Below, in pieces: positions 2,752 through 45,952 of a DNA stretch of 45,952 nucleotides. Below the pieces are notes generated by a model that had not been told where the DNA came from, made no database searches, and saw only the letters and a list, made by a program, of their open reading frames with translations. The position numbers were made by a program, and so were the translations under genes. This DNA comes from an uncultured Prevotellaceae bacterium (GTDB taxonomy: Bacteria; Bacteroidota; Bacteroidia; Bacteroidales; Bacteroidaceae). Each line of letters opens with the position of its first letter. Position 1 is the stretch's first letter. Where the stretch lies: the NCBI GenBank assembly GCA_900321835.1, contig ONXQ01000005.1:1-45952 (forward strand), in the 5' to 3' direction.

Positions 2752-2764
2752 AAAAACAAACACA

Positions 2765-3352: not shown

Positions 3353-3398
3353 AAGGTCTGCGGGCCCGTCGCCGACGGTGTGCCCCGACTGTATGTTT

Positions 3399-3609: not shown

Positions 3610-4599
3610 TCAATAGACGCGGAAGCCGATGGTCTTGCGCACTTCGCGCAGGGTGGCGGCGCTGCTTTCACGGGCCTTTTCGGCACCCTGCCGGGCGATG
3701 CGGTCGAGCAGTTCGGTGTTGCTGCTGTACTCCTGGATGCGTTCGCGGATGGGACCCAGCGTGCGCACCATGTCTTCGGCGAGTTGTTTCTTCATGTCGC
3801 CATAGCGCAGGGTGCAGTCATTCCACTTCTCGTCGAAGTATTTGTAGGTCTCTTCGTCGGAGACAATGTGCATGAGGGTGAAAAGGTTCTGGATGACCTC
3901 GGGCTTTGGGGAATTGGGCTCCTGGGGTCCGTTGTCGGTGACAGCGCGCATCACCTTCTTGCGCACCGTCTTCTCGTCCTCATAGAGGTAGATGCAGTTG
4001 CCGTCGCTCTTGCCCATCTTTCCGCTGCCGTCGAGGCCTGGAACTTTCAGGGCCTCGCCGCCGAAGTAGAAGTTCTGCGGCTCTGGGAAGAGTTCGGTGT
4101 GGTAGATGTTGTTGAAGCGTCGGGCACATTTGCGTGCCATCTCCATGTTCTGTTCCTGGTCCTTGCCCACAGGCACCCACTTGGCGCGGTGCTGCAGAAT
4201 GTCGGCAGCCATGAGTGTGGGATAGGTGAACAGGCCTGCATTGACGTTGTCGGGCTGCTGGCGCGCTTTCTCCTTGAAGGTGGTGACGCGGCCGAGTTCG
4301 CCGATGTAGGTATTCATGTTCAGATAGAGGTAGAGTTCGATGGTTTCGGGCACGTCGCTCTGGATGTAGATGGTCGCCTTCTCGGGGTCGATTCCGCAGG
4401 CGAGGTATTCGGCCAGGATGGTGCGGGCCGAACGCTGGATGTTTTCGGGTGTGGGGTGTGTGGTGAGCGAATGCCAGTCGGCAATGAAAAAGTAGCAGTT
4501 GTATTCGTTTTGCATCTTCACGAAACTGCGCACGGCTCCGTAGTAGTTGCCGAGGTGCAGGTTGCCGGTTGGGCGAATTCCACTAAGTACGATGTCCAT
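3610..4599 (-). CDS. trpS: tryptophan--tRNA ligase
   Basis: MDIVLSGIRPTGNLHLGNYYGA (HIGH-type motif), KMGKS motif (GSGKMGKSDGN), 329 aa class-I synthetase length. Confidence 0.95.
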   Translation of the reverse strand: MDIVLSGIRPTGNLHLGNYYGAVRSFVKMQNEYNCYFFIADWHSLTTHPTPENIQRSARTILAEYLACGIDPEKATIYIQSDVPETIELYLYLNMNTYIGELGRVTTFKEKARQQPDNVNAGLFTYPTLMAADILQHRAKWVPVGKDQEQNMEMARKCARRFNNIYHTELFPEPQNFYFGGEALKVPGLDGSGKMGKSDGNCIYLYEDEKTVRKKVMRAVTDNGPQEPNSPKPEVIQNLFTLMHIVSDEETYKYFDEKWNDCTLRYGDMKKQLAEDMVRTLGPIRERIQEYSSNTELLDRIARQGAEKARESSAATLREVRKTIGFRVY

Positions 4600-7178: not shown

Positions 7179-7338
7179 CAAAGTTACGGATAAGTGAGAG
7201 CAATACAAAATGAAAATCAAAAAATTTTCATTTTTATTGCCGAACGGGAGTAATTTCGGCGTAGCCAAAGTTACGGATAAGTGAGAGCAATACAAAAAGA
7301 AAATCAAAAAAAATTCATTTTTATTGCCGAACGGGAGT
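7179..7338 (-). repeat. tandem duplication (87-bp period) of a promoter-box plus AT-rich hairpin module
   Basis: Copy 1 is 7179-7251 and copy 2 is 7266-7338: caaagttacggataagtgagaGCAATACAAAAnGAAAAT...ATTTTTATTGCcgaacgggagt. On the minus strand each copy reads hairpin, then 13 nt, then TAACTTTG. Confidence 0.85.
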
Positions 7339-7366
7339 CTGCAGTCACCATTTCGATGCCACTTGC

Positions 7367-7466
7367 GAGCGCTTGGAAAAAAACGTCTGAGCGCTCAGAC
7401 GAAAACGTCCGAGCGCTCGGACGAAAATTTCTGAGCGCTCAGACCTTTACGCGCACACGCGTGGGA
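7367..7466 (+). repeat. 22-bp-phased GAGCGCTC element, 4 units plus tail
   Basis: Cores at 7367, 7389, 7411, 7433; head gccacttgcGAGCGCTTGGaaaaaaacgtc; tail cagacctttacgcgcacacgcgtggg; sits between divergently transcribed genes. Confidence 0.92.
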
Positions 7467-13997: not shown

Positions 13998-14001
13998 TTC
14001 G

Positions 14002-14105
14002 GAGCGCTCGAACGCGGACTTCCGAGCGCTTGGAAATTTTCGTCCGAGCGCTCAGACGTTTCTTTCTGAGCGCTCAGACCTTTACGCGCGCACGCGAGCG
14101 ACGGG
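14002..14105 (+). repeat. 22-bp-phased GAGCGCTC element, 4 units plus tail
   Basis: Cores at 14002, 14024, 14046, 14068; begins 5 nt after the antiporter stop; tail cagacctttacgcgcgcacgcgagcg. Confidence 0.92.
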
Positions 14106-15362: not shown

Positions 15363-15438
15363 TTCTTTCTCGTTTAATTTTTAATCCTTCATTCCTGATT
15401 TTTAATTTACAATTCTTATCTTTTCCACACCATAATCA

Positions 15439-18045: not shown

Positions 18046-18055
18046 ATATAGGCCT

Positions 18056-18140
18056 GAGCGCTCGGACGAAAACGTCTGAGCGCTCAGAGATTTTCTTCCG
18101 AGCGCTCAGACGTTTTTTTCCAAGCGCACGGACTTCAAAA
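18056..18140 (-). repeat. 22-bp-phased GAGCGCTC element, reverse orientation, 4 units
   Basis: Cores at 18056, 18078, 18100, 18122 (the last is degenerate, AAGCGCAC). The head unit ...tttttttccAAGCGC is the reverse complement of GAGCGCTTGGaaaaaaa. Confidence 0.9.
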
Positions 18141-18900: not shown

Positions 18901-18973
18901 CCAAAATTTTAACAAATACTTGTCTTAGCGACAAGATTTTTCACTTTCAACTTTTCACTTATCACTTTCAACA

Positions 18974-20414: not shown

Positions 20415-20458
20415 ACACCGCAGTGCAACGGAATTTGCACTGCGGTGTATTTTTATTT
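20415..20458 (+). terminator. rho-independent terminator
   Basis: 14-bp perfect stem ACACCGCAGTGCAA-cggaat-TTGCACTGCGGTGT followed by atttttattt. Confidence 0.85.
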
Positions 20459-20461
20459 CGT

Positions 20462-20548
20462 CTGTGGACGAAATTTATTTCAACTGCGGACGAAATTATT
20501 TTCGTCTGCGGACGAAATTTTTTTCAACTGCGGACGAAATTTGGGGGC
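20462..20548. repeat. 4-unit tandem array, 22-bp period, CTGCGGACGAAAT variant
   Basis: Units start at 20462, 20484, 20506, 20528: ctg(t/c)ggacgaaatt(t/a)(a/t)tttc(aa/gt). Confidence 0.9.
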
Positions 20549-23764: not shown

Positions 23765-23870
23765 CTTCGCGCGCACGCGTAAAGGTCTGAGCGCTCGGAA
23801 AGAAACGTCTGAGCGCTCGGAAGAAATCGTCTGAGCGCTCAGACGAAAATTTCCAAGCGCTCGGAAAGGC
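23765..23870 (-). repeat. 22-bp-phased GAGCGCTC element, reverse orientation, 4 units plus tail
   Basis: Cores at 23789, 23811, 23833, 23855. The reverse complement is nearly identical to the 14024-14105 copy apart from one extra unit. Confidence 0.92.
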
Positions 23871-26571: not shown

Positions 26572-26679
26572 GGCAAAAACACACCGCCAAGCACACTTTT
26601 TACAAAAAAAATGCACTTTCCGGGAAAATTTTTCCTTTTTCACTTTTCACTTTTCACTTTTCTTTGTATCTTTGCAACG

Positions 26680-29502: not shown

Positions 29503-29566
29503 CCCACCCCACGCACCTGCTGAAGCCACCACTCGGGTCCGCCATCAGGACTTGCTTTCGACTTTT

Positions 29567-29631
29567 AAGTGCTTAAAAAAAAGTTTTAAGTGCATAAAAA
29601 TACATTTTCAAGTGCTTAGAAATTCATTTCA
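29567..29631. repeat. 3-unit tandem array, 21/22-bp period, AAGTGCTT variant
   Basis: Units at 29567, 29588, 29610: AAGTGCTTaaaaaaaagtttt / AAGTGCATaaaaatacattttc / AAGTGCTTagaaattcatttc. Confidence 0.85.
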
Positions 29632-29647: not shown

Positions 29648-31374
29648 ATGAAGACAGCAGTGATACAAGTGACAGAAGCCGGCGCACAGGTGGCGCAGGT
29701 GGTCTGTCAGGAAACAGGCGGAATGCTCGTTCCCCGCTCCGACCTCGGCCGGCACTGGGCCGACGTGGAGGCCGTCGTGTTCATCGGCGCAATGGGCATC
29801 TGTGTCCGCACCATTGCGCCCTTGCTGACGGACAAGCACACCGACCCCGCCGTCGTGTGCATCAGCAGCGACGGCAGCCATGTGATTTCCGTCGTTTCGG
29901 GGCACGTCGGCGGTGCCAACCAACTGGCCGGACAACTGGCCGCTGCCCTGCCCGGGGCCGAGGCCGTGGTCACGACCCAGAGTGACACACAAGGACTCTG
30001 GGCCCTCGACACGCTGGCACAGCGCTATGGCTGGACTGCCGAGGTGGAGGGTGCGACGATGAATGACGCCATCTTCCGCTTTGTCGGCAAAGAGCCTGTG
30101 GCACTGCTGATTGAGACGTGCGATGCAGGCAGCGACTATCTGCAGCGCACCTGTCCGCCACACGTTCGCCGCATCCAGTCGGAGAGCGAAGTGGATACAG
30201 CCAGCGACCGTCTGCTCATTGCCGTCACTCCGCGCCAGATTCACAGCAGCGTTCCCGTGCTCCAGTACGTTCCGAAGACGCTCTGCCTGGGCATCGGGCT
30301 GGCCCATCAGGCAGAACCTGCCGAGGCGATTCTCCGTCAAATCATGCAGTGTGTCGCCGACAGCGGATGGCTGTGGCAGGGTGTGCGCACCGTTGCGACC
30401 ATCGACGTGAAACGCGACGAACCCGTCGTGAAACTGCTGCAAAGTCAAGGCTTCGACGTTCAGTTCTACACGGCAGACCAACTCGCCGCTGTGCCTGTGC
30501 CCACGCCCAGCGATGTCGTCGCCAGCCATGTGGGGACACCGAGTGTGAGTGAGGCCGCAGCCATTCTTGCAGCCGACGGAGGCCCGCTGGTCGTCAGCAA
30601 GAAAAAAGGTGAAAAATTCACCGTTGCCGTGGCCTCTTTGCCGCTGATGCAGGAGGTGGGCAGTGGGCATGGCTTCATCGAAATTGTCGGAGCCGGCCCC
30701 GGCGATCCCGACCTCATCTCCGTGCGCGGCCGTCGAATGCTCGAACGTGCCGACCTCATCCTCTACGCAGGTAGTCTGGTACCACGCGAACTCACGCTGT
30801 GCGCCAAACCAGAGGCCGTGGTGCGTTCCTCCGCCTCGATGTCGCTGGAGGAACAGTGTGCGCTGATGAAGGAATATTACGACCGAGGCTGCTTCATCGT
30901 CCGTCTGCACACGGGCGACCCCTGCATCTTCGGTGCCATCCAGGAGCAGATGGCCTACTTCGACGCCCACCACATGCACTACCACATCACACCATACCCG
31001 AACGCTGTCAGACCATCATCCTGACGCGCGGCGAAGGCCGTACGCCCATGCCCGAACGCGAAAAACTCCATCTGCTGGCCCGCAGCCGCTCGACCATGTG
31101 CATCTTCCTCAGTGCTGCCATCGTCGATGACGTGCAGCAGCAACTCCTCGCCGAATACCCGCCTGAGACGCCTGTCGCCGCCTGCTACCATCTGACGTGG
31201 CCCGACCAGCGCATCTATCGGGGTCAACTCAAAGACCTGGCCAGCATCGTCCACGACCATCATCTCACACTGACCACCATGCTCGTGGTCGGCGATGCGA
31301 TTGACAACCGCCAGGGCCTCTCCGAACTCTATTCGGCACACTTTTCACACTTGTTCAGAAAAGCCAGCGAATGA
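29648..31374 (+). pseudogene. cbiGF: cbiG-cbiF fusion: cobalt-precorrin-5A hydrolase / precorrin-4 C11-methyltransferase, disrupted in the cbiF part
   Basis: CbiG part looks intact (ATG 29648, MKTAVIQVTEAG...). CbiF starts with IEIVGAGPGDPDLISVRG...RLHTGDPCIFGAIQEQ...MHYHITP, then stops. The continuation IPERCQTIILTRGEGRTPMPEREKL...TMLVVGD is in the frame of 30799. The PGVSSF...AAAA segment expected between them is absent (junction about 30992-30997). Confidence 0.7.
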
Positions 31375-33242
31375 TACTCCTCTTTGGTGGCACGACCGAA
31401 GGACGCAAGGCTGCAGAGGTGCTCGAAGAGGCCGGCAGCACGTTCTACTACTCGACCAAGACGGGCGAGCAGGACATCGCCCTGCACCACGGGCTGCGCA
31501 TCGACGGAGCGATGGATGCCGAGGCGATGCAACGTTTTTGTCAGGAACAGGAAATCCGCCTCATCATCGACGCCGCCCATCCCTTTGCGCAGCAGTTGCA
31601 CCAGACCATTGCCGACGTCGCCCAGCGCCTACGCCTTCCCGTCGTCCGCTACGAACGCATCTTTCCGCCGCGCGACGAACACTTCATCTGGATTGACCGC
31701 TACGAAGATTTGCGCACGCTGCGGCCTGCCACCGTTCTTGCCACAACCGGCGTACAGAGCATTTCGCACCTGAAACCCCTCGAGACCGCAGGCTTCCGCT
31801 TCCTGTACCGCATTTTGCCCCGCGAGAGTTCTGTGGCACTGGCAAAAGCGCAGGGTGCTGCCGACGACCAACTTTGCTACTATCACGACGACGAGGACGA
31901 AGTCGCCCTGCTCCGCAGGCTCCGTCCCGACATCCTCCTGGTGAAGGAAAGCGGTGAAAGCGGTGGTTTCAACAAAAAAACGCAAGCCGCTCGTTCACTG
32001 GGTATTACGGTTGTCGCGCTGAAACGCCCTGCAACGCCTTTCACCTTCCACTGCGTCAACGGTCCGCACGGACTTCGCCGCCGTGTCGAGCAGTTGCTAC
32101 CCGACTTTTTTTCCCTGCACAGCGGCCTGACCACAGGCACGTGTGCCACCGCAGCCGCCGTAGCAGCAACGATTCGTCTGACGCGGGGTGAAACACCCTC
32201 CCAGGTGCCTGTCATCCTGCCCGACGGCGAAACCATCTCCGTCGGCGTCGGCTATGGCAACGACTATGCTTTCTGCATCAAGGACGGCGGCGACGACCCC
32301 GACGTGACCGACGGGATTGAAATAAGGGCAAAGGTGGAGGCACAAGCCCCCCTCCACCTCCCCCCCGAAGGGGGAGGGCCTCAAAAACAGCCTGTAGATA
32401 AGGAATCCTCCCCACTCGGGGGGGAGTTAGAGGGGGGCCAGGTCTTTATCACTGGTGGCGAAGGCATCGGAACCATCACCCTCCCCGGCTTTGACTATCC
32501 CCCTGGTTCGCCAGCCATCAACCGTGTACCCCGGGAGATGATAATGACTAACTTAAAGGCACTCCCCTTATGTGGGAGAGATGGAGGGGGGCCGTTCACC
32601 ATCACCCTCTCCGTCCCCAACGGTGCAGAGATAGCCCGCCGCACGTTCAATCCGCGCCTGGGCATCGAGGGCGGCATCAGCATCATTGGGGTGAGCGGCA
32701 TTACGAAACCCTTCAGCGAAGAGGCCTTCGTCGCCTCCATCCGCAAATGTATGGAAGTGGCAAAGGCCAGTATGCCCGCCGAAGGCTGTCTGGTCATCAA
32801 CAGCGGCGCGAAGAGCGAGGCCTACGTCAAGGCGCGTTTTCCCGAACTGCCTGCACCCTGTTTCGTGCAGTATGGCAACTACATCGGTGCCACACTCCGC
32901 ATCGCGGCCGAACTCGCCATTCCCCGTGTCACGCTTTGCGTGATGCTGGGCAAGGCCGTCAAACTCGCTGCCGGCAACCTCGACACCCACAGCCGCCGCA
33001 CGACAATGGACGTCGGCTTTGTCCTCTCCATGCTCACCGAGGCAGGGTGCAGCGACGACGTCATCGCCGCAGCCCACGGTCTCACGCTGGCCCGCGACCT
33101 CTGGACCCTCCTGCCGCCCGACCGTCTCGAACCTTTTGCCCGCGTCGTCATCCGCCATTGTCACCACCATTGCGACCCGGTTTTGCCCGACGGCCAACTC
33201 GACATCCTGCTCATCGACGAGGAAGGACATATATACGCCTGA
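31371..33242 (+). CDS. cbiJD: cbiJ-cbiD fusion: cobalt-precorrin-6A reductase / cobalt-precorrin-5B C1-methyltransferase
   Basis: CbiJ: MILLFGGTTEGR, IIDAAHPFA, LVKESGESGG. CbiD: SGLTTGTCATAAAVAA, KDGGDDPDVT, PAINRVPREMI, FNPRLGIEGGISIIGVSGI. ATGA overlap with the preceding ORF. The frame is open but contains the inserted repeats listed below. Confidence 0.8.
   Translation: MILLFGGTTEGRKAAEVLEEAGSTFYYSTKTGEQDIALHHGLRIDGAMDAEAMQRFCQEQEIRLIIDAAHPFAQQLHQTIADVAQRLRLPVVRYERIFPPRDEHFIWIDRYEDLRTLRPATVLATTGVQSISHLKPLETAGFRFLYRILPRESSVALAKAQGAADDQLCYYHDDEDEVALLRRLRPDILLVKESGESGGFNKKTQAARSLGITVVALKRPATPFTFHCVNGPHGLRRRVEQLLPDFFSLHSGLTTGTCATAAAVAATIRLTRGETPSQVPVILPDGETISVGVGYGNDYAFCIKDGGDDPDVTDGIEIRAKVEAQAPLHLPPEGGGPQKQPVDKESSPLGGELEGGQVFITGGEGIGTITLPGFDYPPGSPAINRVPREMIMTNLKALPLCGRDGGGPFTITLSVPNGAEIARRTFNPRLGIEGGISIIGVSGITKPFSEEAFVASIRKCMEVAKASMPAEGCLVINSGAKSEAYVKARFPELPAPCFVQYGNYIGATLRIAAELAIPRVTLCVMLGKAVKLAAGNLDTHSRRTTMDVGFVLSMLTEAGCSDDVIAAAHGLTLARDLWTLLPPDRLEPFARVVIRHCHHHCDPVLPDGQLDILLIDEEGHIYA
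32347..32439 (+). repeat. in-frame GC-rich hairpin insertion inside cbiD
   Basis: ccCCTCCacCTCCCCCccgaaGGGGGAGGgcc tcaaaaacagcctgtagataaggaat CCTCCCCactcgGGGGGAGttagaggggggcc; encodes APLHLPPEGGGPQKQPVDKESSPLGGELEGG. The AT-rich centre is atypical for this CDS. Confidence 0.6.
32560..32593 (+). repeat. second copy of the CTCCCC...GGGAG...GAGGGGGGCC motif inside cbiD
   Basis: cACTCCCCttatgtGGGAGagatggaggggggcc resembles 32407-32439. It is preceded by rare-codon AT-rich DNA (atgataatgactaacttaaag). Confidence 0.45.
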
Positions 33243-33350
33243 GCGCTCAGAAATTTTCGTCTGAGCGCTCAGACGTTTTCCTCCGAGCGCTCAGACGTTT
33301 TCTTCCGAGCGCTCAGACGTTTTTTTCCAAGCGCTCAGATGTATATAGAA
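33238..33350 (-). repeat. 22-bp-phased GAGCGCTC element, reverse orientation, 5 units
   Basis: Cores at 33241, 33263, 33285, 33307, 33329. The first core overlaps the cbiJD stop codon (ccTGAgcgctc). Head ...tttttttccAAGCGCTCagatgtatatag. Confidence 0.92.
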
Positions 33351-36925: not shown

Positions 36926-36944
36926 GCGCCCCGGCGCTACTCGC

Positions 36945-37045
36945 GCGCGTATATATACGTCTGAGCGCTCGGACGAAACGCTCTGAGCGCTCAGACGAAA
37001 ACTTCCGAGCGCTCAGACGTTTTTTTCCAAGCGCTCGGAAACCGA
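36945..37045 (-). repeat. 22-bp-phased GAGCGCTC element, reverse orientation, 4 units
   Basis: Cores at 36963, 36985, 37007, 37029; left end is the palindrome CGTATATATACG (36948-36959); head ...tttttttccAAGCGCTCgg. Confidence 0.92.
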
Positions 37046-37052
37046 AATAGAC

Positions 37053-39143
37053 ATGACAAGAAAAACATGTGATATGTTATTTAAGAAAGTAGGTTTTTTG
37101 ATGGCGGCACTCCTCACGGGGAGTGCTGCCTTTGCGCAAATTCACAAGATGGAACGTGCCGACACGTCGGCCGTGGCACACACCTACGACCTCAACCCCG
37201 TCGTCGTCACAGGCTCGGGCCACCATCAGCGCATGAAGTACACAGCCACGCCCGTCCGTATGCTTTCCTCGCAGGAAATCCGAGAACAGGGCATCACCAC
37301 CTTCGACGCTGCCCTCACACGCATGATGCCCCAGGTGTCGATGGCACCCAACTCGATGGGCACCTTCCTGCGGCTCAACGGACTGGGCAACAAGTACATC
37401 CTCATTCTGGTGAACGGACAGAAACTGTCGGGCGACATCTCGAACAATGTTGACCTCAACCGCATCAACATGGCACGCGTGAAGCGCATCGAGGTGCTCG
37501 ACGGAGCAGCCTCGTCGCTCTACGGCAGCGATGCCATCGCCGGCGTCATCAACATCATCACCGACCAGCCCACACAGCAACTGGTGAGCGTGATGAGCGA
37601 CACCCGAGTGTCGGGCAAGGGCCAACTCACCGAGTCGGTCAACCTCGACATCCACACCCACGGCTTCGGTTCCTACACCTCCTTTGTCCACGACCGGGCC
37701 GACAGTTACCAGACCACGGACCTCGAATACAAGAAAGGCTCCGACACCGAGACCCAGCCGACCATCGCACCCTTCTTCACCGGCTACCGCTCCAACGTGC
37801 TCAGCCAGAAGTTCACCTACAGTCCCAACCGCCACCTGGCGATGAACGCCTACGTGGACTATTCGAACAAAATCACCGACCGTCCCGCGACACGTCCCGA
37901 CATCACCGGCGGCACCGACTACGAGATGCGCTACCGCGGCCTGCGCTACGGCTTTGGCGGCATCTACAAGTTCACACAGCGCAACTCGCTGCAGGCCGAC
38001 CTGACCATCGACCGCTTCCGCTACGGCAAGGAATACGACGTCGAGACGAAGAACAACGCCGTGGGCGACTTTGTCGAGTCGAAACGCCAGCGCACCATCG
38101 AGGGACAACTGAAGGGCGTGCTCGGCCTCACGGCAAACTCGACCACCGTGGTCGGTGCCGACTGGCGCCGCGACAAACTCGTCGCCACGAGCGGCAACAT
38201 CGACCAGACCGCCTACACCCTCGCCGCCTATGCCCAGCACGAAGTGAAGATGTGGGACCTGCTCACAGCCACCGTCGGCCTGCGCTACGACTATCACGAG
38301 AACTTCCACAACCGCCTCACGCCAAAAGCCACACTGATGCTCTCGCCAGGCCCCTTTAACTTCCGTGCCACATGGTCCACAGGCTTCCGTGCCCCAGGCC
38401 TCGACGAACTCTACTACCACTACTACTCCGTCAACCGCGGAAAGCCGCAAATCACCTTCGGCAACAGCAGTCTCGACCCCGAGCGCAGCAACTACTTCGC
38501 CCTCAACGCCGAATACCGCACCCAGACCCTCGCCGTCAGCGTGACCGGCTATGTGAACCGCATCAGCGACATGATCATACGCCAGGACATCCCCGTCGGC
38601 TCGTCCGAACTGACCATGCTGCAGGCCGAATTTCCGGAGATGACGTCGGCCGAGGCCGCCAAACTCGAACGCTACAGCCGCTATGTCAACAGCGACCGCG
38701 GCGACGTCAAAGGTCTGCAAGTGAACGTGTCGGCCAACCTTTTCGATGGTTTCAACCTCTCGGCCAACTACGCCTACACCTATGCCCGGACTGAGAACGC
38801 CGGCGAGTGGAGCGTGCTGGAGCGCAGCATCCGCAACGTGGCAACGCTGGCGGCAAACTACCACCATGCCTGGGGTCACTATGCACTGAACGTCAACCTG
38901 AACGGACGCTTGCAGTCGCGCACCTACTATACCAGTTACGAGAATGCACCGGGCTACGGCATCTGGAACCTGCACACCACGCACACGTTCGATCACCTGC
39001 ATTGGGCCATCATCGAGCCCAGCATCGGTGTTGACAATCTGTTCAACCGGGTCGATCGACGCATCGACTCCAGCAACCGCAAGTACGCCCTCTACAGCCC
39101 CGGACGTATGATCGTCGTCGGTCTGCGCGTACGTTTCCAGTAA
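37053..39143 (+). CDS. TonB-dependent receptor (paralog of 33700..35835)
   Basis: LNPVVVTGS, LNGLGNKYILILVNGQK, IKRIEVLDGAASSLYGSDAIAGVINIIT, C-terminal VVGLRVRFQ. The start may instead be ATG 37074. Confidence 0.85.
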   Translation: MTRKTCDMLFKKVGFLMAALLTGSAAFAQIHKMERADTSAVAHTYDLNPVVVTGSGHHQRMKYTATPVRMLSSQEIREQGITTFDAALTRMMPQVSMAPNSMGTFLRLNGLGNKYILILVNGQKLSGDISNNVDLNRINMARVKRIEVLDGAASSLYGSDAIAGVINIITDQPTQQLVSVMSDTRVSGKGQLTESVNLDIHTHGFGSYTSFVHDRADSYQTTDLEYKKGSDTETQPTIAPFFTGYRSNVLSQKFTYSPNRHLAMNAYVDYSNKITDRPATRPDITGGTDYEMRYRGLRYGFGGIYKFTQRNSLQADLTIDRFRYGKEYDVETKNNAVGDFVESKRQRTIEGQLKGVLGLTANSTTVVGADWRRDKLVATSGNIDQTAYTLAAYAQHEVKMWDLLTATVGLRYDYHENFHNRLTPKATLMLSPGPFNFRATWSTGFRAPGLDELYYHYYSVNRGKPQITFGNSSLDPERSNYFALNAEYRTQTLAVSVTGYVNRISDMIIRQDIPVGSSELTMLQAEFPEMTSAEAAKLERYSRYVNSDRGDVKGLQVNVSANLFDGFNLSANYAYTYARTENAGEWSVLERSIRNVATLAANYHHAWGHYALNVNLNGRLQSRTYYTSYENAPGYGIWNLHTTHTFDHLHWAIIEPSIGVDNLFNRVDRRIDSSNRKYALYSPGRMIVVGLRVRFQ

Positions 39144-39159
39144 ATCATCTTATGAACAA

Positions 39160-39210
39160 GGAATGAAGAATGACGGATGCCCGCTTGTCGTTCTTCATTC
39201 CATTTTTTTT
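39160..39210 (+). terminator. GAATGAAGAAT-type hairpin plus T-run
   Basis: GGAATGAAGAATGACG-gatgcccgct-TGTCGTTCTTCATTCC then attttttttc; ends 8 nt before the next start codon. Confidence 0.6.
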
Positions 39211-39217
39211 CAAACCC

Positions 39218-39724
39218 ATGAAGCAACTCTACACCAGGACAGGCGACAGCGGCCTGACCAGCCTTCGCGAGGGCGTCAGGGTCGAGAAGGACGACCTGCG
39301 CATCGAAGTGAACGGACAGGTGGACCACCTCAACGCCCTGCTCGGTCTGGTACGCAGCGACGAGCGCACAGCAGCCCTGCTGCCGACCGACGACGCTGCA
39401 CTCATCAGGCGGGTGCAGACAGAACTGATGTCGGTCATGAGCCACATCGCCACGCCCAGCGGCAGTGTCAATCCCCGTCCGCTCCATGTCGGCGAACTGA
39501 CTGCTGAGATGGAGCAAGCCATCGACCGCCACACCGACGGGCGCACCACAGGCTTCACCATTCCCGGCGACACACCGGCGGCGGCGTTGCTCCATGTGGC
39601 CCGCACCCAGACACGCACCGTCGAGCGCCGGCTCTGGACCCTGCATCGCGAGCATCCGCTGTCGCCCAGCGTGCTCACCTTCTTCAACCGCCTCAGCGAC
39701 TACCTTTTTTCACTCACCCTCTGA
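39218..39724 (+). CDS. pduO: PduO-type ATP:cob(I)alamin adenosyltransferase
   Basis: Start moved to MKQLYTRTGDSGLTSL; VNGQVDHLNALLG, ARTQTRTVERR, FFNRLSDYLF. Confidence 0.85.
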   Translation: MKQLYTRTGDSGLTSLREGVRVEKDDLRIEVNGQVDHLNALLGLVRSDERTAALLPTDDAALIRRVQTELMSVMSHIATPSGSVNPRPLHVGELTAEMEQAIDRHTDGRTTGFTIPGDTPAAALLHVARTQTRTVERRLWTLHREHPLSPSVLTFFNRLSDYLFSLTL

Positions 39725-39738
39725 CTCTTTTTCCAACC

Positions 39739-40755
39739 ATGCTCTACGGACACGGCGACGACACCTTCCGCTTCCCCCACCTGCGTGCCAACTTCAGTTC
39801 GAACATCTGCACAGAGGCCGACCTTGCCCCCCTCAAGGCGCATCTGGCCACACGGCTCTCCGCCATCGAGAACTATCCGGAGCCGGCAGCCGACTCGCTC
39901 GCTGCCTGCATCGCCCGGCTGCACGGCATCCAGCCCGACGAGGTGCTGGTGACCAACGGCGCCACCGATGCCATCTACCTCATTGCACAGGCTTTTGCCA
40001 CGGATGGTACCTATTTCTCGACCGACGAACCCACTTTCAGCGAATATGCCGACGCCTGCCTTTTGTTCGGATTGAAACCTCAGACAGACGCGGACTCTTC
40101 TGCAGCCGTTCGCTGGCTGTGCAACCCGAACAACCCCGACGGCCGCATCTACACGTCCGAGCAAGTGCGACGGGAGGCACAGCGCAGCACGTGGCTCGTC
40201 GTCGATCAGTCGTACGAAGACTACACCGCAGCCCCTCTGCTCACCGCTCGCGAGGCGCTCGGTGTGCCCAACCTGCTGCTGCTCCATTCGCTCACCAAGA
40301 GTTACGCCGTACCGGGGCTGCGCATCGGCTATGTCACTGCGCCGGCTCCGCTCATCGCCCGTCTCAAGTCCGTCAGCCGTCCGTGGGCCGTCAATGCCCT
40401 GGCGGTCGAGGCCGGGAAATGGCTGCTCAGCCACGATGTACGTGCCGTGCCCGACCTCGATGCCCTGTTGGCAGAGACCCAGCGGCTGGCCAACGCACTT
40501 TCGGAGGTGCCTCACCTCCACGTCAGCCCCACCGCCACGACCTTCATGCTCGTCTGCTGCGACACGTTCACGGCGGCCCAACTGAAGGAGCGGCTGGCCT
40601 CGGAACACGGTCTGCTCATCCGCGATGCCTCCAATTTCCCCACGCTCACTCCCCATCACTTCCGTGTGGCAACCCAGCGGCCCGACCAGAACGATGCACT
40701 TGTCGCTGCCCTGCGCACCCTTCTCTCCCCGTCTGCAGACGAACGAAAGTTCTGA
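39739..40755 (+). CDS. cobD: threonine-phosphate decarboxylase (class I/II aminotransferase fold)
   Basis: MLYGHGDD, NFSSN, YPEP, CNPNNPDG, HSLTKSYAVPGLRIGY (PLP lysine motif). Confidence 0.85.
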   Translation: MLYGHGDDTFRFPHLRANFSSNICTEADLAPLKAHLATRLSAIENYPEPAADSLAACIARLHGIQPDEVLVTNGATDAIYLIAQAFATDGTYFSTDEPTFSEYADACLLFGLKPQTDADSSAAVRWLCNPNNPDGRIYTSEQVRREAQRSTWLVVDQSYEDYTAAPLLTAREALGVPNLLLLHSLTKSYAVPGLRIGYVTAPAPLIARLKSVSRPWAVNALAVEAGKWLLSHDVRAVPDLDALLAETQRLANALSEVPHLHVSPTATTFMLVCCDTFTAAQLKERLASEHGLLIRDASNFPTLTPHHFRVATQRPDQNDALVAALRTLLSPSADERKF

Positions 40756-40820
40756 GTGCTTGAAAAAAAAGTTTTAAGTGCTTGAAAATTTACTTTTACG
40801 TGCTTGAAAGTTTGTTTTTA
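40754..40820. repeat. 3-unit tandem array, 22-bp period, (G/A)AGTGCTT variant
   Basis: Units at 40754, 40776, 40798: GAGTGCTTgaaaaaaaagtttt / AAGTGCTTgaaaatttactttt / ACGTGCTTgaaagtttgttttt; the first unit overlaps the cobD stop. Confidence 0.88.
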
Positions 40821-40833
40821 CCTACTTGTTTCG

Positions 40834-40841
40834 TAACTTTG
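40834..40841 (+). promoter_or_regulatory. -7 promoter box TAACTTTG
   Basis: 19 nt upstream of ATG 40861. Confidence 0.5.
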
Positions 40842-40860
40842 CACAAAGATTAGAAAACAA

Positions 40861-41400
40861 ATGGAGGTAGTCCTTATTCGCCACACCAGCGTCGCAGTCC
40901 CGAAAGGCACGTGCTACGGACAGACCGACGTGCCCGTTGCCGACACGTTTGAACAGGAGGCTGCGGCCACCCGTGCCGCCCTCGGCCGCTACGGCCAGTT
41001 CGACGCCGTCTTCTCGTCGCCCCTCACCCGTGCCCGCCTGCTGGCAGCAGCCTGCGGCTACGAACAGCCCGTCATCGACGACCGTCTGAAGGAGATGTCG
41101 ATGGGCGATTGGGAGATGAAGCAGTTTGACCTCATCGACGACCCGCACCTGAAGGAGTGGTACGACAACTACATCGAAGAGCGCACCAGCGGCGGAGAGA
41201 GTTTCCAGGACGTCTATCGGCGCGTGGCAGCCTTTCTTGACGAAGTGCGCCAACGGCCCGACTACACCCGCGTGGCCGTCTTTGCCCACGGCGGCGTGCT
41301 GATGTGTGCAGGCCTGTATGCCGGGCTCTACACCGCCGACGATATGTTCTACCACCTCGTCCCCTACGGCGGCATTCTGGAAATAAAAATTGAGAATTAG
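40861..41400 (+). CDS. cobC: alpha-ribazole phosphatase (histidine phosphatase family)
   Basis: MEVVLIRHTSV...CYGQTDVP, SSPLTRA, FAHGGV. Confidence 0.8.
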   Translation: MEVVLIRHTSVAVPKGTCYGQTDVPVADTFEQEAAATRAALGRYGQFDAVFSSPLTRARLLAAACGYEQPVIDDRLKEMSMGDWEMKQFDLIDDPHLKEWYDNYIEERTSGGESFQDVYRRVAAFLDEVRQRPDYTRVAVFAHGGVLMCAGLYAGLYTADDMFYHLVPYGGILEIKIEN

Positions 41401-41408
41401 TCAACACG

Positions 41409-41981
41409 ATGAGCAGAGTCATCTTGATCACAGGCGGACAGCGCTCGGGCAAGAGCGAATGGGCAGAGCGGATGGCGCTCTCGCTCAGCGACAGCCCCGT
41501 CTATGTGGCCACGGCCCATGTGTGGGACGAAGAGTTCCGCCAGCGGGTGCGCCGTCATCAGGAGCGTCGTGGACCTCAGTGGACAAACATCGAGGAAGAG
41601 ATGCGGCTGGCCGACCACGACCTGACGGGACGTGTGGCGGTGATTGACTGTGTGACACTTTGGCTCACCAATTTCTTCTTCCACCTTGACAGCAACACCG
41701 AACAGGCCCTCGCCGCCGCCAAGCGCGAATTCGACCGCCTCGCCGAGCAGGATGCGACCCTCATCTTTGTAACCAACGAAATCGGCTGTGGCGGCGTAAG
41801 CGACAATGCCCTTCAGCGCCGATTCACCGACCTGCAAGGCTGGATGAACCAGCACATCGCACAGCGAGCCGACGAGGTGTGGTGGATGGTGTCGGGCCTG
41901 CCCGTACAGATTAAGCATGAGAACATTCAACATACAACAGCCCGACAGCAGGATGCTGGCGGACATTCGCAAGAAGATTGA
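41409..41981 (+). CDS. cobU: bifunctional adenosylcobinamide kinase / adenosylcobinamide-phosphate guanylyltransferase
   Basis: ILITGGQRSGKSEWAE P-loop, HQERRGPQWTNIEE, IDCVTLWLTN, VTNEIGCGGV; the 3' end overlaps cobT by 65 nt. Confidence 0.85.
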   Translation: MSRVILITGGQRSGKSEWAERMALSLSDSPVYVATAHVWDEEFRQRVRRHQERRGPQWTNIEEEMRLADHDLTGRVAVIDCVTLWLTNFFFHLDSNTEQALAAAKREFDRLAEQDATLIFVTNEIGCGGVSDNALQRRFTDLQGWMNQHIAQRADEVWWMVSGLPVQIKHENIQHTTARQQDAGGHSQED

Positions 41982-42954
41982 CAACCTGAACAAGCCGAAA
42001 GGCTCGCTCGGACGCCTCGAAACGCTCGCCGAGCAAATCTGCCTGGTGCAGCAAACCCTGTCGCCGCGCCTCACCCACCCCAGCCACCTGCTACTCGGAG
42101 CCGACCACGGCATCGAGCGCGAGGCAGTGAGCGTGAGTCCGCGCGAAGTCACGTGGCAGCAGATGCTTAACTTCACCCACGGCGGCGGCGGAGTCAACAT
42201 GTTCTGCCGTCAGCACGGCTTCAAGTTGCGCATCGTAGATGTCGGCGTCGATTACGACTTCACGGGCGTTGATGGGATTCTGGACAGAAAAGTGGCGCGT
42301 GGAACACGCAATTTTCTCCACGAGGCTGCCATGACACAGGAAGAGTACGACCGCACCATCGACATCGGTGCAGCGCTCTGCGACGACTGCTTCGCCGAAG
42401 GCTGCAACGTGCTGAGCATCGGCGAGATGGGCATAGCCAACACCTCGCCGTCCAGCATCTGGATGAGCCTCTTTTGCCACATCCCGCTCGACGAGTGCAT
42501 AGGTGCCGGAGCAGGACTCGACACACCGGGCATCCGTCACAAGCGCGAGGTGCTCAGACAGGCTGTGGACAACTATCAGGGACAGGGCACTGCCGCCGAC
42601 CTCATCCGCTACTTCGGCGGATTCGAGATGGTAGCCGCCATCGGAGCCATGCTTCGTGCAGCCAAGCATCGTATGCTGGTGCTGGTCGATGGATTCATCA
42701 TGTCGGCCTGTGCCCTCGCCGCCATCCAGTTGGAACCGGAGGTGCGCGACTACATGATCTTTGCCCACTGCGGCGACGAGAGCGGCCATCGGCGTATGCT
42801 CGATGCCATGCAGGCCCAGCCCCTGCTCAGTCTTGGCCTGCGGCTGGGAGAAGGAACGGGAGCGCTCTGTGCCTACCCCATCGTCGATTCGGCTGTGCGG
42901 ATGATCAACGAAATGAACAACTTCGACAATGCGCGTATTACGAAATATTTTTGA
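41917..42954 (+). CDS. cobT: nicotinate-nucleotide--dimethylbenzimidazole phosphoribosyltransferase
   Basis: IDNLNKPKGSLGRLE, GADHGI, GEMGIANTS, LRLGEGTGA. Confidence 0.9.
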   Translation: MRTFNIQQPDSRMLADIRKKIDNLNKPKGSLGRLETLAEQICLVQQTLSPRLTHPSHLLLGADHGIEREAVSVSPREVTWQQMLNFTHGGGGVNMFCRQHGFKLRIVDVGVDYDFTGVDGILDRKVARGTRNFLHEAAMTQEEYDRTIDIGAALCDDCFAEGCNVLSIGEMGIANTSPSSIWMSLFCHIPLDECIGAGAGLDTPGIRHKREVLRQAVDNYQGQGTAADLIRYFGGFEMVAAIGAMLRAAKHRMLVLVDGFIMSACALAAIQLEPEVRDYMIFAHCGDESGHRRMLDAMQAQPLLSLGLRLGEGTGALCAYPIVDSAVRMINEMNNFDNARITKYF

Positions 42955-43711
42955 CCGTCTGTGGGCGGCTCTCATCTTTTTCACACGTCTGCCGTTGTGG
43001 CGGCTTTATCAGCCACCACAGGAGTGCTACAACTCGGTCGTTGAGTTCTGGCCGCTGACGGGATGGCTCACAGGCGGCGTGATGGCCGTCGTCATCGGGG
43101 TGGGCAGCCAGTGGCTGCCCTTGTCGGTGAGCGTCGTGCTGGCCATCGCTGCGCGCCTCTTGCTGACGGGCGGCCTTCACGAGGACGGCCTGGCCGATTT
43201 CTTTGACGGAATGGGCGGCGGAGGCAGCGACCGCAGCCGTGTGCTGGCCATCATGAAAGACTCTCACATCGGCACCTTCGGCGTTCTCTCGCTCATTGTC
43301 TATTTTCTGTTGCTGTGGACCGTGCTGACCTCCATGCCAGCCGTCATGGCCGCCTTCTGCATCTTCGTCGCCGACCCGTATGCCAAAATGCTGAGCGGAC
43401 AACTCATCCTCATGCTGCCCTACGCACGGACGGAGGAGACGGCGAAGAACCGCACCGTCTATCGTCGCTATTCGTGGAAGGCAGGACTGAGCCTGCTGGT
43501 GCAGGGACTGCTGCCGATGGGCCTCCTCGTTTATGTGTCGATGGATGTAGACTTCACCTGGGTGCTCATGCTGCCGGCCGTCGTCTTCTACCTGCTCTAC
43601 CTTTTCATTCGCCACCGTCTGCACGGCTACACGGGTGACTGCTGCGGCGCCGTCTGCCTGATGGTCGAGTTGACGACGTGCCTGGCCATGCTGCTCTGGG
43701 GGACCATGTGA
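42929..43711 (+). CDS. cobS: adenosylcobinamide-GDP ribazoletransferase (cobalamin synthase)
   Basis: ALIFFTRLP, GGLHEDGLADFFDG, multi-TM, 260 aa. Confidence 0.85.
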   Translation: MRVLRNIFDRLWAALIFFTRLPLWRLYQPPQECYNSVVEFWPLTGWLTGGVMAVVIGVGSQWLPLSVSVVLAIAARLLLTGGLHEDGLADFFDGMGGGGSDRSRVLAIMKDSHIGTFGVLSLIVYFLLLWTVLTSMPAVMAAFCIFVADPYAKMLSGQLILMLPYARTEETAKNRTVYRRYSWKAGLSLLVQGLLPMGLLVYVSMDVDFTWVLMLPAVVFYLLYLFIRHRLHGYTGDCCGAVCLMVELTTCLAMLLWGTM

Positions 43712-43772
43712 ACCACACCCGTTTTTCCTGAATCCCATAGTCCCACACAGAGGGAAGTTTTGCCACTTGTCC

Positions 43773-43865
43773 GAGCGCTTGGAAAAAAACGTCCGAGCGC
43801 TCGGACGTTTTCGTCTGAGCGCTCAGAGATTTTTTTCTGAGCGCTCAGCCCTATATACAGACTTT
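43773..43865 (+). repeat. 22-bp-phased GAGCGCTC element, 4 units
   Basis: Cores at 43773, 43795, 43817, 43839. The head gccacttgtccGAGCGCTTGGaaaaaaacgtc matches the 7367 copy. Tail cagccctatatacagac. Lies between convergent cobS and cbiB. Confidence 0.92.
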
Positions 43866-43866
43866 G

Positions 43867-44754
43867 TCAGAAAGAAAAGCAGAGGACGGCTGCCAGGAGC
43901 ACGGCAACGACTTCGGTGGTGACCACGATGCGCACGGCCCGCTGCATGTCGGGGGTGGAAAGCGGACGGGGGTTCGTGCCGATGAAAGGTTTGTCGAAAA
44001 GTTGGCCGAAGTAGGTGTGCGGACCGCCGAAACGGCAGTCGAGGATGCCGGCCAGAGCGGCTTCGGGCCATCCGCTGTTGGGGCTGGCATGGCGCGGGCC
44101 GTAGGTCCAGACAAAGCGCAGGAGCGACGGACGGCCGGCGACGAGAATCATGAGCAGGGCGGTGAGACGTGCAGGGATGAAGTTGGCGACGTCATCAATG
44201 CGGGCAGCGACGGTGCCGAAACGGCGATAGCGGTCGGTGCGGTAGCCAATCATCGAGTCAAGGGTGTTGACCATCTTGTAGGCCAGCATACCCGGTGCGC
44301 CGAGGAGGACGTACCAGAAAAGCGGTGCGATGACACCGTCGCTGAGGTTCTCGGCGAGCGTTTCGAGAGCGGCCGTGCGCACCTCCTGCGCTGTGAGTTC
44401 AGTCGTGTCGCGGCCCACAATGCGTGCCACCTGTCGGCGTCCCTGTTCCAGACCTTCATCGAGGGCGACAAAGACCTGACGGACTTCGCGGACGAGCGTA
44501 GTGCCTGCGAGACAGAAAAAGACTATGACGAAGTCGATGTAGCGTGGCAGTGCCCATGCGAGGGCGTAGGCCAGCAGAATGAGCACGACAGCCATGACGC
44601 CTCCTTTCAGACGTCGCCACGTGCCGCGGTTGAGCCAGTGTTCGCCCCAGCCAATCAGACGACCGAAGCCGACGACCGGGTGTGGCAGCCACGATGGGTC
44701 GCCCAGCAGGCGGTCGAGCGACCAACCGCCCAGAAGCATGAGGAACTTAATCAT
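43867..44754 (-). CDS. cbiB: adenosylcobinamide-phosphate synthase
   Basis: Start moved to ATG 44754 (MIKFLMLLGGWSLDRLLGDPSWLPHPVVGFGRLI). NLSDGVIAPLFWY, NTLDSMIGY, DDVANFIPARL, SPNSGWPEAA. Confidence 0.88.
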   Translation of the reverse strand: MIKFLMLLGGWSLDRLLGDPSWLPHPVVGFGRLIGWGEHWLNRGTWRRLKGGVMAVVLILLAYALAWALPRYIDFVIVFFCLAGTTLVREVRQVFVALDEGLEQGRRQVARIVGRDTTELTAQEVRTAALETLAENLSDGVIAPLFWYVLLGAPGMLAYKMVNTLDSMIGYRTDRYRRFGTVAARIDDVANFIPARLTALLMILVAGRPSLLRFVWTYGPRHASPNSGWPEAALAGILDCRFGGPHTYFGQLFDKPFIGTNPRPLSTPDMQRAVRIVVTTEVVAVLLAAVLCFSF

Positions 44755-45952
44755 GGCGCAGAATCTGGTAAATGCGTTGCAGGTCAACGTGCTGGCGGAC
44801 ATGGTCGGCCAGACGGTCGTATTGCTCCTGCTTGAATGCCTGATAATCAAAGGTGGAGACCTTGTCCGAGCGTTTTGCAGCATAGGGCTGGAGCAGGAAG
44901 TCCACGAAGGCGCGGTTGTCGAAGATGCCGTGCAGGTAGGTTCCCATGCACTGCGGACTGGCGTAGTATCCGTCTTCGCGTCCGTCGCTGAGGCGGAAAA
45001 GTGGAGAGGCAGGCTCATCGCCAAAGGGCTTCGTCACACCCATGTGGATTTCGTAGCCCGTGAGAAGAGCCTCGCCGTCCCCAGGCGAAAAGGCTGGGAA
45101 TGAAGAATGAAGAATGTCGGTTTCTCCTCCGGATGAAGAATAAGATTTACTTTCATTCTTCATTCTTAATTCTTCATTCTTCATGTCGTCGAAGGGAAGC
45201 CAACGGGCAGATACCTGGCGGGTAACTTTCTCGCCAGAAAGCGTAGTAGTGACTGGCAGAAGGCCCAAACCGGGAAGGCGTTCGGCATCGCCTTCGACAT
45301 GAAGCGGGTCGCACACCTCGACACCCAGCATCTGATAACCTCCGCAGATGCCCACCACTGTTTTTCCCTCGCGATGCGCCTCAACAATGGCCTGCGCCAT
45401 GCCGCTGCGGCGCAGATGGTAGAGGTCGTCGAGGGTCGATTTGCTCCCCGGCAGCACGACGATGTCGGCCTGCCGGAGGTCGTCGGGCGCTGCGGTGTAG
45501 AAGAGGTGGATGCGCGGATCCTGTTCCAGGGCATCGAAGTCGGTGAAGTTGGAGATGTGCTGAAGCATGACCACGGCGATGTTGATGCGTCCCTGCGCCG
45601 TCACCCTGGATTTCTGAGCCAAAGAAACACTGTCTTCCTCCTCGATGTGGATGTCTTTGAAATAGGGTATGACGCCCAGCACGGGGATGCCGCAAATCTT
45701 TTCCAACAGGCTGCGCCCCTCGTCGAAAAGGCGCATATCGCCACGGAATTTGTTGATAATGATGCCGCAGATGCGTCGGCGGTCGTCGTCGGGCAGCAGT
45801 GCGATGCTTCCATAAACCGAAGCAAACACGCCGCCACGGTCGATGTCGCCGACCAGAATGACACGTGCGTCGGCATGGCGGGCCATCGGCATATTCACGA
45901 TGTCGCTGTCGCGGAGGTTGAGTTCGCTGATGCTACCTGCTCCCTCCATGAC
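44747..45952 (-). CDS. cobQ: cobyric acid synthase, 5'-truncated by the window edge
   Basis: GAGSISELNLRDSDIVNM, VGDIDRGGVFAS, IINKFRGD, GATase part GICGGYQMLG, GYEIHMG, GTYLHGIFDN. The stop overlaps the cbiB start by 8 nt. Contains the inserted repeat listed below. Confidence 0.88.
   Translation of the reverse strand, partial: VMEGAGSISELNLRDSDIVNMPMARHADARVILVGDIDRGGVFASVYGSIALLPDDDRRRICGIIINKFRGDMRLFDEGRSLLEKICGIPVLGVIPYFKDIHIEEEDSVSLAQKSRVTAQGRINIAVVMLQHISNFTDFDALEQDPRIHLFYTAAPDDLRQADIVVLPGSKSTLDDLYHLRRSGMAQAIVEAHREGKTVVGICGGYQMLGVEVCDPLHVEGDAERLPGLGLLPVTTTLSGEKVTRQVSARWLPFDDMKNEELRMKNESKSYSSSGGETDILHSSFPAFSPGDGEALLTGYEIHMGVTKPFGDEPASPLFRLSDGREDGYYASPQCMGTYLHGIFDNRAFVDFLLQPYAAKRSDKVSTFDYQAFKQEQYDRLADHVRQHVDLQRIYQILRHD
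45098..45184. repeat. in-frame AT-rich heptamer-palindrome insertion inside cobQ
   Basis: GAATGAAGAATGAAGAATG (45098-45116) ... CATTCTTCATTCTTAATTCTTCATTCTTCAT (45154-45184). Translated on the minus strand as ...DDMKNEELRMKNESKSYSSSGGETDILHSSF... Confidence 0.8.

Follow-up and report, generated by a model that had tools for sequence, protein, structure and literature searches.

Within cobQ/cbiP, the cobyric acid synthase gene of an uncultured Prevotellaceae bacterium, lies an AT-rich pair of inverted heptamer arrays that would be translated as part of the enzyme, which raises the question of where this segment came from and what, if anything, it does there. The window analyzed here comprises 45,952 nucleotides (positions 1 to 45,952 of the forward strand of contig ONXQ01000005.1, GenBank assembly GCA_900321835.1), and the segment, built on the unit GAATGAA, occupies positions 45097–45184. 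[quoted passage not shown]

A heptamer-repeat hairpin in an open cobQ frame

The gene and the parts of the element are as follows.

44747–45952, minus strand: cobQ/cbiP, cobyric acid synthase (open reading frame [ORF] 44747–45949), its 5′ part beyond the window end
45097–45184, minus strand: core of the hairpin element, 88 nt, with ends placed where identity to a copy on contig L207 starts and stops
45098–45116, plus strand: GAATGAA array of 2.7 units, forming the outer stem with 45169–45184; 3′ arm in the mRNA, translated as ..ILHSSF
45116–45130, minus strand: non-heptamer module of 15 nt, coding sense GGAGGAGAAACCGAC, family consensus GGAGGCGAAGCCGAC, translated as GGETD
45131–45165, no strand assigned: inner stem and short loop, GGATGAAGAATAAG paired to TTTCATTCTTCATTC upon folding
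45152–45184, plus strand: TTCATTC array of 4.7 units with one TTAATTC variant; 5′ arm in the mRNA, ATGAAGAATGAAGAATTAAGAATGAAGAATGAA

The heptamer inverted repeat in cobQ is real and lies well beyond chance. On the plus strand, GAATGAAGAATGAAGAATG at 45098–45116 and CATTCTTCATTCTTAATTCTTCATTCTTCAT at 45154–45184 flank a 37-nt spacer, just as an original prediction made from the letters of the window had read them, and the stem of about 19 bp proposed there corresponds to 19-nt arms with 95% complementarity, including a perfect 16-nt pair (45100–45115/45169–45184) detected with a repeat finder. Tandem Repeats Finder (TRF) returned a period of 7 for both arrays, with 2.7 copies at 45098–45116 and 4.7 copies at 45152–45184 and matches of 100% and 92%, which places them within the definition of a heptanucleotide simple repeat (at least about three copies). 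The 12-mer GAATGAAGAATG, with two mismatches or fewer, occurs 13 times in the window versus 2.8 expected, a count attained in none of 100 shuffles, and its matches are concentrated at the cobQ element and at 39161–39200, the only two such sites within the 46 kb. The GC fraction of the element is 0.36–0.43, as compared to about 0.57–0.60 for the gene. Folding yielded −31.4 kcal/mol (z −3.4) for the RNA sense and −22.6 kcal/mol (z −4.3) for DNA, with a predicted structure fuller than a single stem: an outer stem of 16 bp, an inner stem of ∼11 bp (45131–45144/45151–45165), and a small side hairpin made by the 15-nt module, which breaks up the 3′ arm.

The cobQ ORF remains open through the element (...GEKVTRQVSARWLPFDDMKNEELRMKNESKSYSSSGGETDILHSSFPAFSPGDGEALLTGYEIHMG...), the predicted translation of the 88-nt core in the cobQ frame being MKNEELRMKNESKSYSSSGGETDILHSSF(P), or 29 residues; a predicted peptide across the insert is, for example, SYSSSGGETDILHSSFPAFSPGDGEALLTGYEIHMGVTK. 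The insert is positioned within the GATase_3 domain, between GEKVTRQ and GYEIHMG. Pfam matches to the window protein comprise GATase_3 PF07685 (2e-51), PF13500 (AAA_26), and PF01656 (CbiA), i.e., the nucleotide-binding and GATase_3 domains of a CobQ/CbiP protein whose N terminus lies beyond the window, and the GATase_3 match extends to both sides of the insert (226 residues on a 196-position model). The gene looks intact because the window protein retains all the columns that do not vary across an alignment of 31 sequences, among them the catalytic motif GICGGYQ and the HG motif, and the predicted in-frame insertion of about 30 residues was borne out. Judged from these features, CobQ carrying the insert is most likely still functional. 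It is most similar to cobyric acid synthases from Prevotella and from “Bacteroidaceae” metagenome-assembled genomes (MAGs), at 65 to 73% identity.

The CobQ loop among orthologues

Comparison with orthologues, named in the original prediction as a check, identifies the segment as extra sequence. The stretch from GEKVTRQ to GYEIHMG has 7 residues (VECEYGT-like) in 76 of 110 parsed homologues and 15 in the two closest relatives, P0002 (VKAAMLSEEDKGELS, 71% identity) and L124 (VKATMLSEGDKGVLS, 73%), versus 52 in the window. A resemblance to the 15-residue loop persists at both ends of the window loop (VSARWL... and ...GDGEALLT), and therefore ∼37 residues are extra, 29 of which derive from the 88-nt core.

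This loop is a hot spot for heptamer arrays and hairpins, hypervariable in length and sequence. Contig L001 carries a 93-nt near-perfect GTTTACA hairpin there (−68 kcal/mol), which is shorter in L129 and collapsed in L125, while other Prevotellaceae carry TTCAATC arrays (L002), CTCTCCA arrays (L003), or a CAATTGT hairpin (L153 and L154). Another GAATGAA array, NEESLFNEELRM, occupies the loop of L194 and is the only genuine one in 488 kb of unselected cobQ neighborhoods. Either repeated arrival or continual remodeling of one old insert could account for these arrays.

Some further observations concern the same protein. The rumen contig L001 bears two GTTTACA hairpins with nearly identical loops (4060–4170 and 5100–5230), one inside the CobQ loop and the other spanning the junction of an upstream cbiA-like gene with cobQ; because this second copy bridges the two genes, the gene caller produced the 666-aa fusion protein P0042. 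A second variable CobQ site follows DAYDYWR, where repeat-like peptides occur in P0003, P0005, P0013, and P0101 (e.g., RQGDRNTGRQGDKETRRQDD); in the window cobQ, this site falls past the window end. P0001, a CobQ homologue of 622 aa, contains an exact internal duplication of ∼130 residues (VNMPMACYADADV...NRLER twice) that is probably an assembly artifact, and on account of it has the top bit score at merely 55% identity.

Copies of the element at unrelated loci

When 1.84 billion representative proteins were searched by phmmer with the 35-aa insert as query, which is too short for a census, only three matches were returned. One of these, P0241, led to contig L207 from a rumen sample, on which the 5′ end of a lipoprotein gene, unrelated to cobQ, carries a copy of about 88 nt. 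This copy is about 91% identical to the cobQ element, with the loop GAAAGTAA(A/C)TCTTATTC kept and the 15-nt module included, and identity ends at window positions 45097 and 45184. The shared layout is [GAATTAA GAATGAA GAATGAA] - loop - [ATTCTTCATYC] - GGAGGCGAAGCCGAC - ATTCTTCATTCTTCAT. L009, a Bacteroidaceae MAG from goat omasum, has the same succession of arm, loop, arm, module, and arm once, with the module at 4468–4482, and L111 has it twice, with the module at 808–822 and 2873–2887; in other Bacteroidales, both a CCA-adding enzyme and a primase-like protein contain it in frame. Since unrelated loci share a unique loop and module, local slippage alone is insufficient to explain them.

To delimit the family more widely, species-representative genomes (596 Gb) were scanned with the hairpin pattern GAATGAAGAAYG-N8-38-CRTTCTTCATTC. 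Hairpins with GAATGAA arms were recovered from at least 120 genome stretches, versus ∼0.3 expected by chance in 596 Gb by our own arithmetic. Host range, architecture, and copy counts are given here and below among the matches listed. Hosts include Bacteroidales (Prevotella, Phocaeicola, Bacteroides, and Parabacteroides), Cytophagales (many Hymenobacter, plus Fibrella, Algivirga, and Flammeovirga), Saprospiraceae, Verrucomicrobiota, Acidobacteriota, Gemmataceae (Planctomycetota), Chloroflexota, and Abditibacteriaceae. A few matches are doubtful: L033 and L089 resemble chance G+C-rich hairpins, and L110, binned as “Rhodanobacter sp.,” is nearly identical in hairpin and flanks to L013 (Hymenobacter sp. 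UV11), a probable MAG binning error. Arms comprise 3 to 8 heptamers, with a median stem of 20 bp, a median loop of 24 nt, and recurring loop types, and some units are typical of lineages (GAATGAG in Hymenobacter, GAATTTC in Thermoanaerobaculia, and GAATGCA in Verrucomicrobia). The heptamer register at the stem ends followed no clear phase rule. A search for the 15-nt module with three mismatches gave mostly chance matches in G+C-rich DNA, among which only those flanked by heptamers are meaningful.

The hairpin scan of IMG/VR viral contigs gave no match and hence no sign of a phage vehicle. An Rfam search of 38500–45952 returned only sub-threshold microRNA noise and no family for the hairpin. 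In the literature searched, the GAATGAA unit, its host range, and in-frame repeats of Bacteroidetes or Prevotella were not found, which is not proof of absence.

In-frame copies in other genes

Because 7 and 3 are coprime, (GAATGAA)n of three or more units contains TGA in all three frames; the TTCATTC repeat is stop-free in every frame. Eight of 121 listed hairpins (about 7%) lie in frame within long ORFs, in the following hosts and proteins.

L009, Bacteroidaceae MAG: PolyA_pol and HD
L018, Prevotella: Radical_SAM and HemN_C
L027, Prevotella: DegT aminotransferase
L041, Cytophagales: DinB_2 and FGE-sulfatase
L078, Pedosphaera: L-lactate permease
L113, Hymenobacter isolate (sp. HSC-4F20): methylmalonyl-CoA mutase and B12-binding
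L111, uncultured Bacteroides: BT4734-like
L050, Leptolinea MAG: ORF without Pfam match

All eight encode ...KNEE[L/W/S/Y/V][R/G]MKNEE...HSSF(F)ILHSSF..., and in each the TGA-giving unit is replaced, by TTA, TGG, TCA, TAC, or GTA. The cobQ copy owes its open frame to the GAATTAA unit, which puts TTA (Leu) where TGA would otherwise stand (codons GAA GAA TTA AGA ATG). An open frame is wholly lacking in 59 of 113 non-genic copies. Genic survival is possible for only some versions of the element, and the cobQ version is one of them.

The copy in the CCA-adding/HD protein of L009 could be followed through relatives of that protein.

P0121, 96% identity to the L009 protein: element retained
P0122 (L205), 91%: element retained but diverged, the stem weakening from −38.2 to −32.4 kcal/mol through changes that are not compensatory
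P0123, 92%: a different insert of 55 aa
P0130, P0131, and P0135, 84–86%: a minimal loop of 16 aa, TNVVKSGGELWLRWAA

In other lineages, the loop of the CCA-adding enzyme contains other repeat peptides (e.g., THPQQTHPQQ and PLPSGRGEAG).

Origin and effect of the cobQ copy

The probable course of events under the favored explanation, a tolerated copy of a dispersed repeat, may be outlined as follows. The family is non-coding and hairpin-forming, with tandem GAATGAA arms around a short unique loop and, in one subfamily, a GGAGGCGAAGCCGAC module splitting one arm. A copy would have landed in, or been copied into, DNA encoding a surface loop of the CobQ glutamine amidotransferase, a loop that accepts almost any length, and this copy survives because a GAATTAA unit replaces the TGA-giving unit and leaves the cobQ frame open. 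The element would then be transcribed and translated as ∼29 extra low-complexity residues. Two possible means of spread are a trans-acting enzyme and polymerase slippage combined with fold-back or template-switch copying and gene conversion. The analysis shows the hypervariability of the loop, the kept frame and catalytic motifs of cobQ, the extra sequence, the recurrence of in-frame copies, and the several loci of the family, whereas a surface position for the loop, activity of CobQ, and neutrality of the element are inferred.

Several observations weigh against this explanation. Metagenome and protein searches yielded no near-identical cobQ with an empty site (best identities 73% and 71%), for which reason we infer the insertion event. 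No target-site duplication was seen at the window copy or in two comparisons of filled with empty sites (L001/L125 and L009/L204); short duplications could be hidden because the sequences compared are at most 85% identical. No parent transposase was found, no search having been aimed at one. The true limits of the element are uncertain because 88 nt, the length of its core, is not divisible by three. In the CCA-adding enzyme, DNA comparison indicated that the element replaces ∼15 nt instead of being a pure addition. The divergence between L009 and L205 is ambiguous as well: their elements are 82% identical and their flanks 83–87% identical overall (62–73% at third codon positions), consistent with possible constraint or gene conversion acting on the element. 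Finally, a sequence search for a solved CobQ structure found none, and AlphaFold2 modeling of a 400-aa CobQ fragment with 31 homologues gave a model that is poor overall (mean pLDDT 55), with the insert as its region of lowest confidence; as a result, it is length variation that points to a surface position for the CobQ loop.

Growth in place is the alternative that survives best, and we consider it unlikely. A heptamer seed would have expanded by replication slippage and acquired its inverted arm by fold-back or template switching, with no transposition. The missing target-site duplication is consistent with such an origin, as are the states of the GTTTACA hairpin at the CobQ site (long in L001, short in L129, and collapsed in L125). 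Period-7 arrays number 268 in the fetched DNA, a GAATGAA-biased sample, versus 30 or fewer for any other period from 4 to 12, and these arrays involve dozens of units, many of them also seen as hairpins (e.g., GAGTTTT, CAGTTGT, GATAATT, GGGGTCA, GTAGTTG, and GCGAGGT). Polymerase slippage is also what the literature proposes for over-represented heptamers (PMC4679880 and PMC4692102, citing Mrazek 2007). However, in-place growth leaves unexplained both the unique loop and 15-nt module, ∼91% identical at the unrelated L207 locus, and the occurrence of the same layout in three other genes. Slippage probably alters arm length after arrival, and is in this sense a complement to the dispersed-repeat explanation more than a full rival.

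A second alternative, which we regard as quite improbable, is that the cobQ hairpin functions within the gene as a terminator, attenuator, or RNA-processing site and thereby adjusts cobQ–cbiB expression. Its appeal lies in part in the other site of the repeat in the window:

39160–39210, plus strand: terminator-like hairpin, stem GGAATGAAGAATGACGG ... CGTTCTTCATTCC followed by T8 (−25.4 kcal/mol, z −4.1; terminator scan)

This hairpin (39160–39201), already named in the original prediction as an apparent terminator of the same repeat, has a 17-bp stem, an 8-nt loop, and a following T8, was flagged by the terminator scan, and begins 17 nt past the stop of a TonB-dependent receptor gene (39143), before a PduO-type adenosyltransferase gene. 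It is plausibly an intrinsic terminator whose stem comes from the same repeat, judging by this architecture. The cobQ hairpin is likewise predicted to be stable by folding, and long perfect stems are possible RNase III substrates. Terminators borne by MITEs are known, e.g., SPRITE (PMC10969869). In contrast, the cobQ copy has an AT-rich outer stem of 16 bp around a 53-nt branched interior, is followed in the mRNA sense by CCAGCCTTTTCGCC with no U run directly after the stem, and was not flagged by the scan. Ribosomes translating the frame would be expected to unwind the hairpin, the diverged coding copy in L205 has fewer stem pairs, with no compensatory changes (−38.2 to −32.4 kcal/mol), and a hairpin at the CobQ site is missing from most orthologues. 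A T or A run stands beside the stem in 20 of 113 non-genic copies (∼18%), so that the family as a whole is not a terminator family. Of the original proposal that a terminator-like element had landed in the gene, a tolerated extra in-frame repeat element thus remains and its terminator nature does not; attenuation of cobQ, offered there as the other option, appears unlikely for an 88-nt branched fold that lacks a U-tract and is passed over by the scan.

It is highly improbable that protein-level selection maintains the inserted peptide as something adaptive for CobQ, for example a linker, an interaction loop, or a regulatory segment. The CCA-adding enzyme copy, kept at 96% and 91% identity and evolving no faster than the whole gene, could be read in this way; against it, the peptide is a mere translation of the repeat, KNEE...HSSF recurs in unrelated enzymes, even close relatives differ widely in how long the loop is and in its sequence, and the insert is the least confident region of the CobQ model, poor though that model is overall. 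An assembly or amplification artifact such as a chimeric hairpin, for which hairpins and low-complexity repeats are classic sources, is scarcely credible given an exactly kept frame, the same composite layout in independent assemblies from different projects, isolates included (Hymenobacter sp. HSC-4F20, L113), and inheritance across 91–96% identical relatives in another gene (CCA-adding enzyme).

The preferred explanation of a tolerated repeat copy bears on several wider matters. If it is true, in-frame palindromic selfish DNA, known mainly from Rickettsia, extends to free-living bacteria of gut, rumen, and soil in several phyla, and is built from a type of repeat, the 7-nt array, the origin of which has been debatable ever since it was recognized as the most over-represented long simple repeat of prokaryotes. 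Such inserts would enlarge and diversify surface loops of conserved enzymes, yield spurious ORF starts and gene fusions in annotations (e.g., P0241 and P0042), and may mislead alignment-based phylogeny and structure prediction; the hot-spot loops of CobQ, CbiD, and the CCA-adding enzyme could serve as a natural system for studying element spread and protein tolerance. A broader proposal, advanced tentatively and as somewhat less than an even prospect, is that heptamer-arm hairpins form a distinct, cross-phylum class of self-propagating DNA, perhaps related to the cyanobacterial STRR repeats, moved or copied by a conserved enzyme that recognizes hairpins or by a polymerase-driven ratchet of slippage and fold-back, and that housekeeping enzymes of Prevotellaceae from rumen and gut owe many in-frame loop insertions to this major, overlooked source. 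As proposed, this class would span Bacteroidota, PVC bacteria, Acidobacteriota, and Chloroflexota, and several of its families would recur in genes such as cobQ, cbiD, and that for the CCA-adding enzyme.

Other features of the window

The cobalamin cluster around cobQ encodes TonB-dependent receptors, CbiK, a PduO-type adenosyltransferase, a CobD-like aminotransferase, CobC, CobU, CobT, CobS, and, convergent on the minus strand, CbiB and CobQ.

An unrelated in-frame inverted repeat of G/C runs (GCCCCCCTCCACCTCCCCCCCGAAGGGGGAGG ... CCTCCCCACTCGGGGGGGAGTTAGAGGGGGGC; RNA fold −73.8 kcal/mol, z −6.1) at 32346–32438 falls within the CbiD domain of a CbiJ–CbiD fusion ORF (31371–33242). Of 89 parsed homologues, 52 have a CbiD loop of 16 aa, as compared to 46 aa in the window. 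Different repeat peptides occur in further CbiD homologues, among them a “DKHGLTRT..KEVR.SP” type also present in the CobQ loop of P0005, P0014, and P0068. A separate and, in this genome, much more abundant family has a 22-nt palindromic unit of about TCTGAGCGCTCAGACGTTTTCG in intergenic arrays of 2 to 4.5 units, some copies of which were flagged as terminator-like by the terminator scan. One of several other period-7 arrays (2790–2818) lies within the signal-peptide-coding start of a Sel1-repeat protein ORF (2732–3352). The repeats are located as follows.

3395–3500, 7366–7448, 13999–14056, 18044–18127, 23781–23868, 33230–33347, 36943–37039, and 43770–43848: TCTGAGCGCTCAGACGTTTTCG arrays
935–963, 2790–2818, 15373–15408, 18938–18968, and 26629–26662: other period-7 arrays (GACTCTT, TTGTACT, TTTAATT, and TTTTCAC)
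20452–20542, 29563–29629, 40746–40828, and 7179–7338: further tandem arrays from TRF, with 22-nt units TTTATTTCAACTGCGGACGAAA and AAAGTTCTAAGTGCTTGAAAAA-like and an 87-nt unit in 1.8 copies

Comparison with known systems

Among long simple repeats of prokaryotes, heptamers are the most over-represented, with slippage as the suggested source (PMC4679880 and PMC4692102, citing Mrazek 2007), and detailed studies of them are few: TAACTGA (PMC4679880), GGGAATC/GGGGAYT (PMC4692102), and the cyanobacterial STRR. Like the present arms, these repeats are tandem 7-nt units, mostly intergenic, with lengths that vary greatly between relatives (PMC4679880 and PMC4692102). They are also sometimes inverted into stem-loops and sometimes lie within genes. 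Vioque is said to have described, in 1997, STRR arrays inside the RNase P RNA gene of heterocystous cyanobacteria. The element in cobQ differs in that its paired inverted arms surround a conserved loop and module, which from sequence comparison appear to make up a defined multi-locus element translated within enzymes.

The REP/REPIN sequences, mobilized by RAYT, are likewise short imperfect palindromes in many copies, and here too a hairpin may be the recognized form. They are, however, extragenic, 20 to 40 nt long, and marked by a 5′ GTAG-type tetranucleotide with a RAYT gene alongside, and in-frame genic copies are not a feature of theirs, whereas the present element has 88 nt, intragenic copies, and no GTAG motif.

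Closer likenesses are found among the MITEs (Correia, ERIC, BOX, RUP, and SPRITE; PMC10969869), which are small, non-autonomous, hairpin-forming, and dispersed, and of which some copies provide terminators, as the 39160 hairpin apparently does, and some fuse in frame with ORFs. At 88 nt, the element falls below the ∼500 bp of a MITE, has no coding capacity of its own, ends in inverted heptamer arrays, and has dispersed related copies; it differs in that its ends, being tandem heptamer arrays, vary in length where a MITE has fixed terminal inverted repeats, and in that target-site duplication is not seen. For in-frame insertion, a 2024 review of prokaryotic MITEs takes RPEs as the model case, and it presents SPRITE as a MITE resembling a terminator; Bacteroidetes and heptamers are not mentioned in it (PMC10969869).

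As that review has it, RPEs are short palindromic repeats of about 100–150 nt, dispersed in many copies (Ogata et al. 2000, 2002, via PMC10969869), whose in-frame copies in unrelated housekeeping genes add a family-specific peptide without killing the gene. The same pattern is observed here, with eight in-frame copies besides that in cobQ, all encoding KNEE..HSSF. The hosts differ (Bacteroidota and others versus Rickettsia), the arms here are heptamer arrays, and ∼7% of sampled copies are genic, as compared to nearly half in some RPE families in the account of the review (PMC10969869). Because the host belongs to Bacteroidales, the link to RPEs is one of analogy only, with no homology claimed. 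By such analogies, the best explanation appears to be an element that works like an RPE or MITE and is built like an STRR-type simple repeat.

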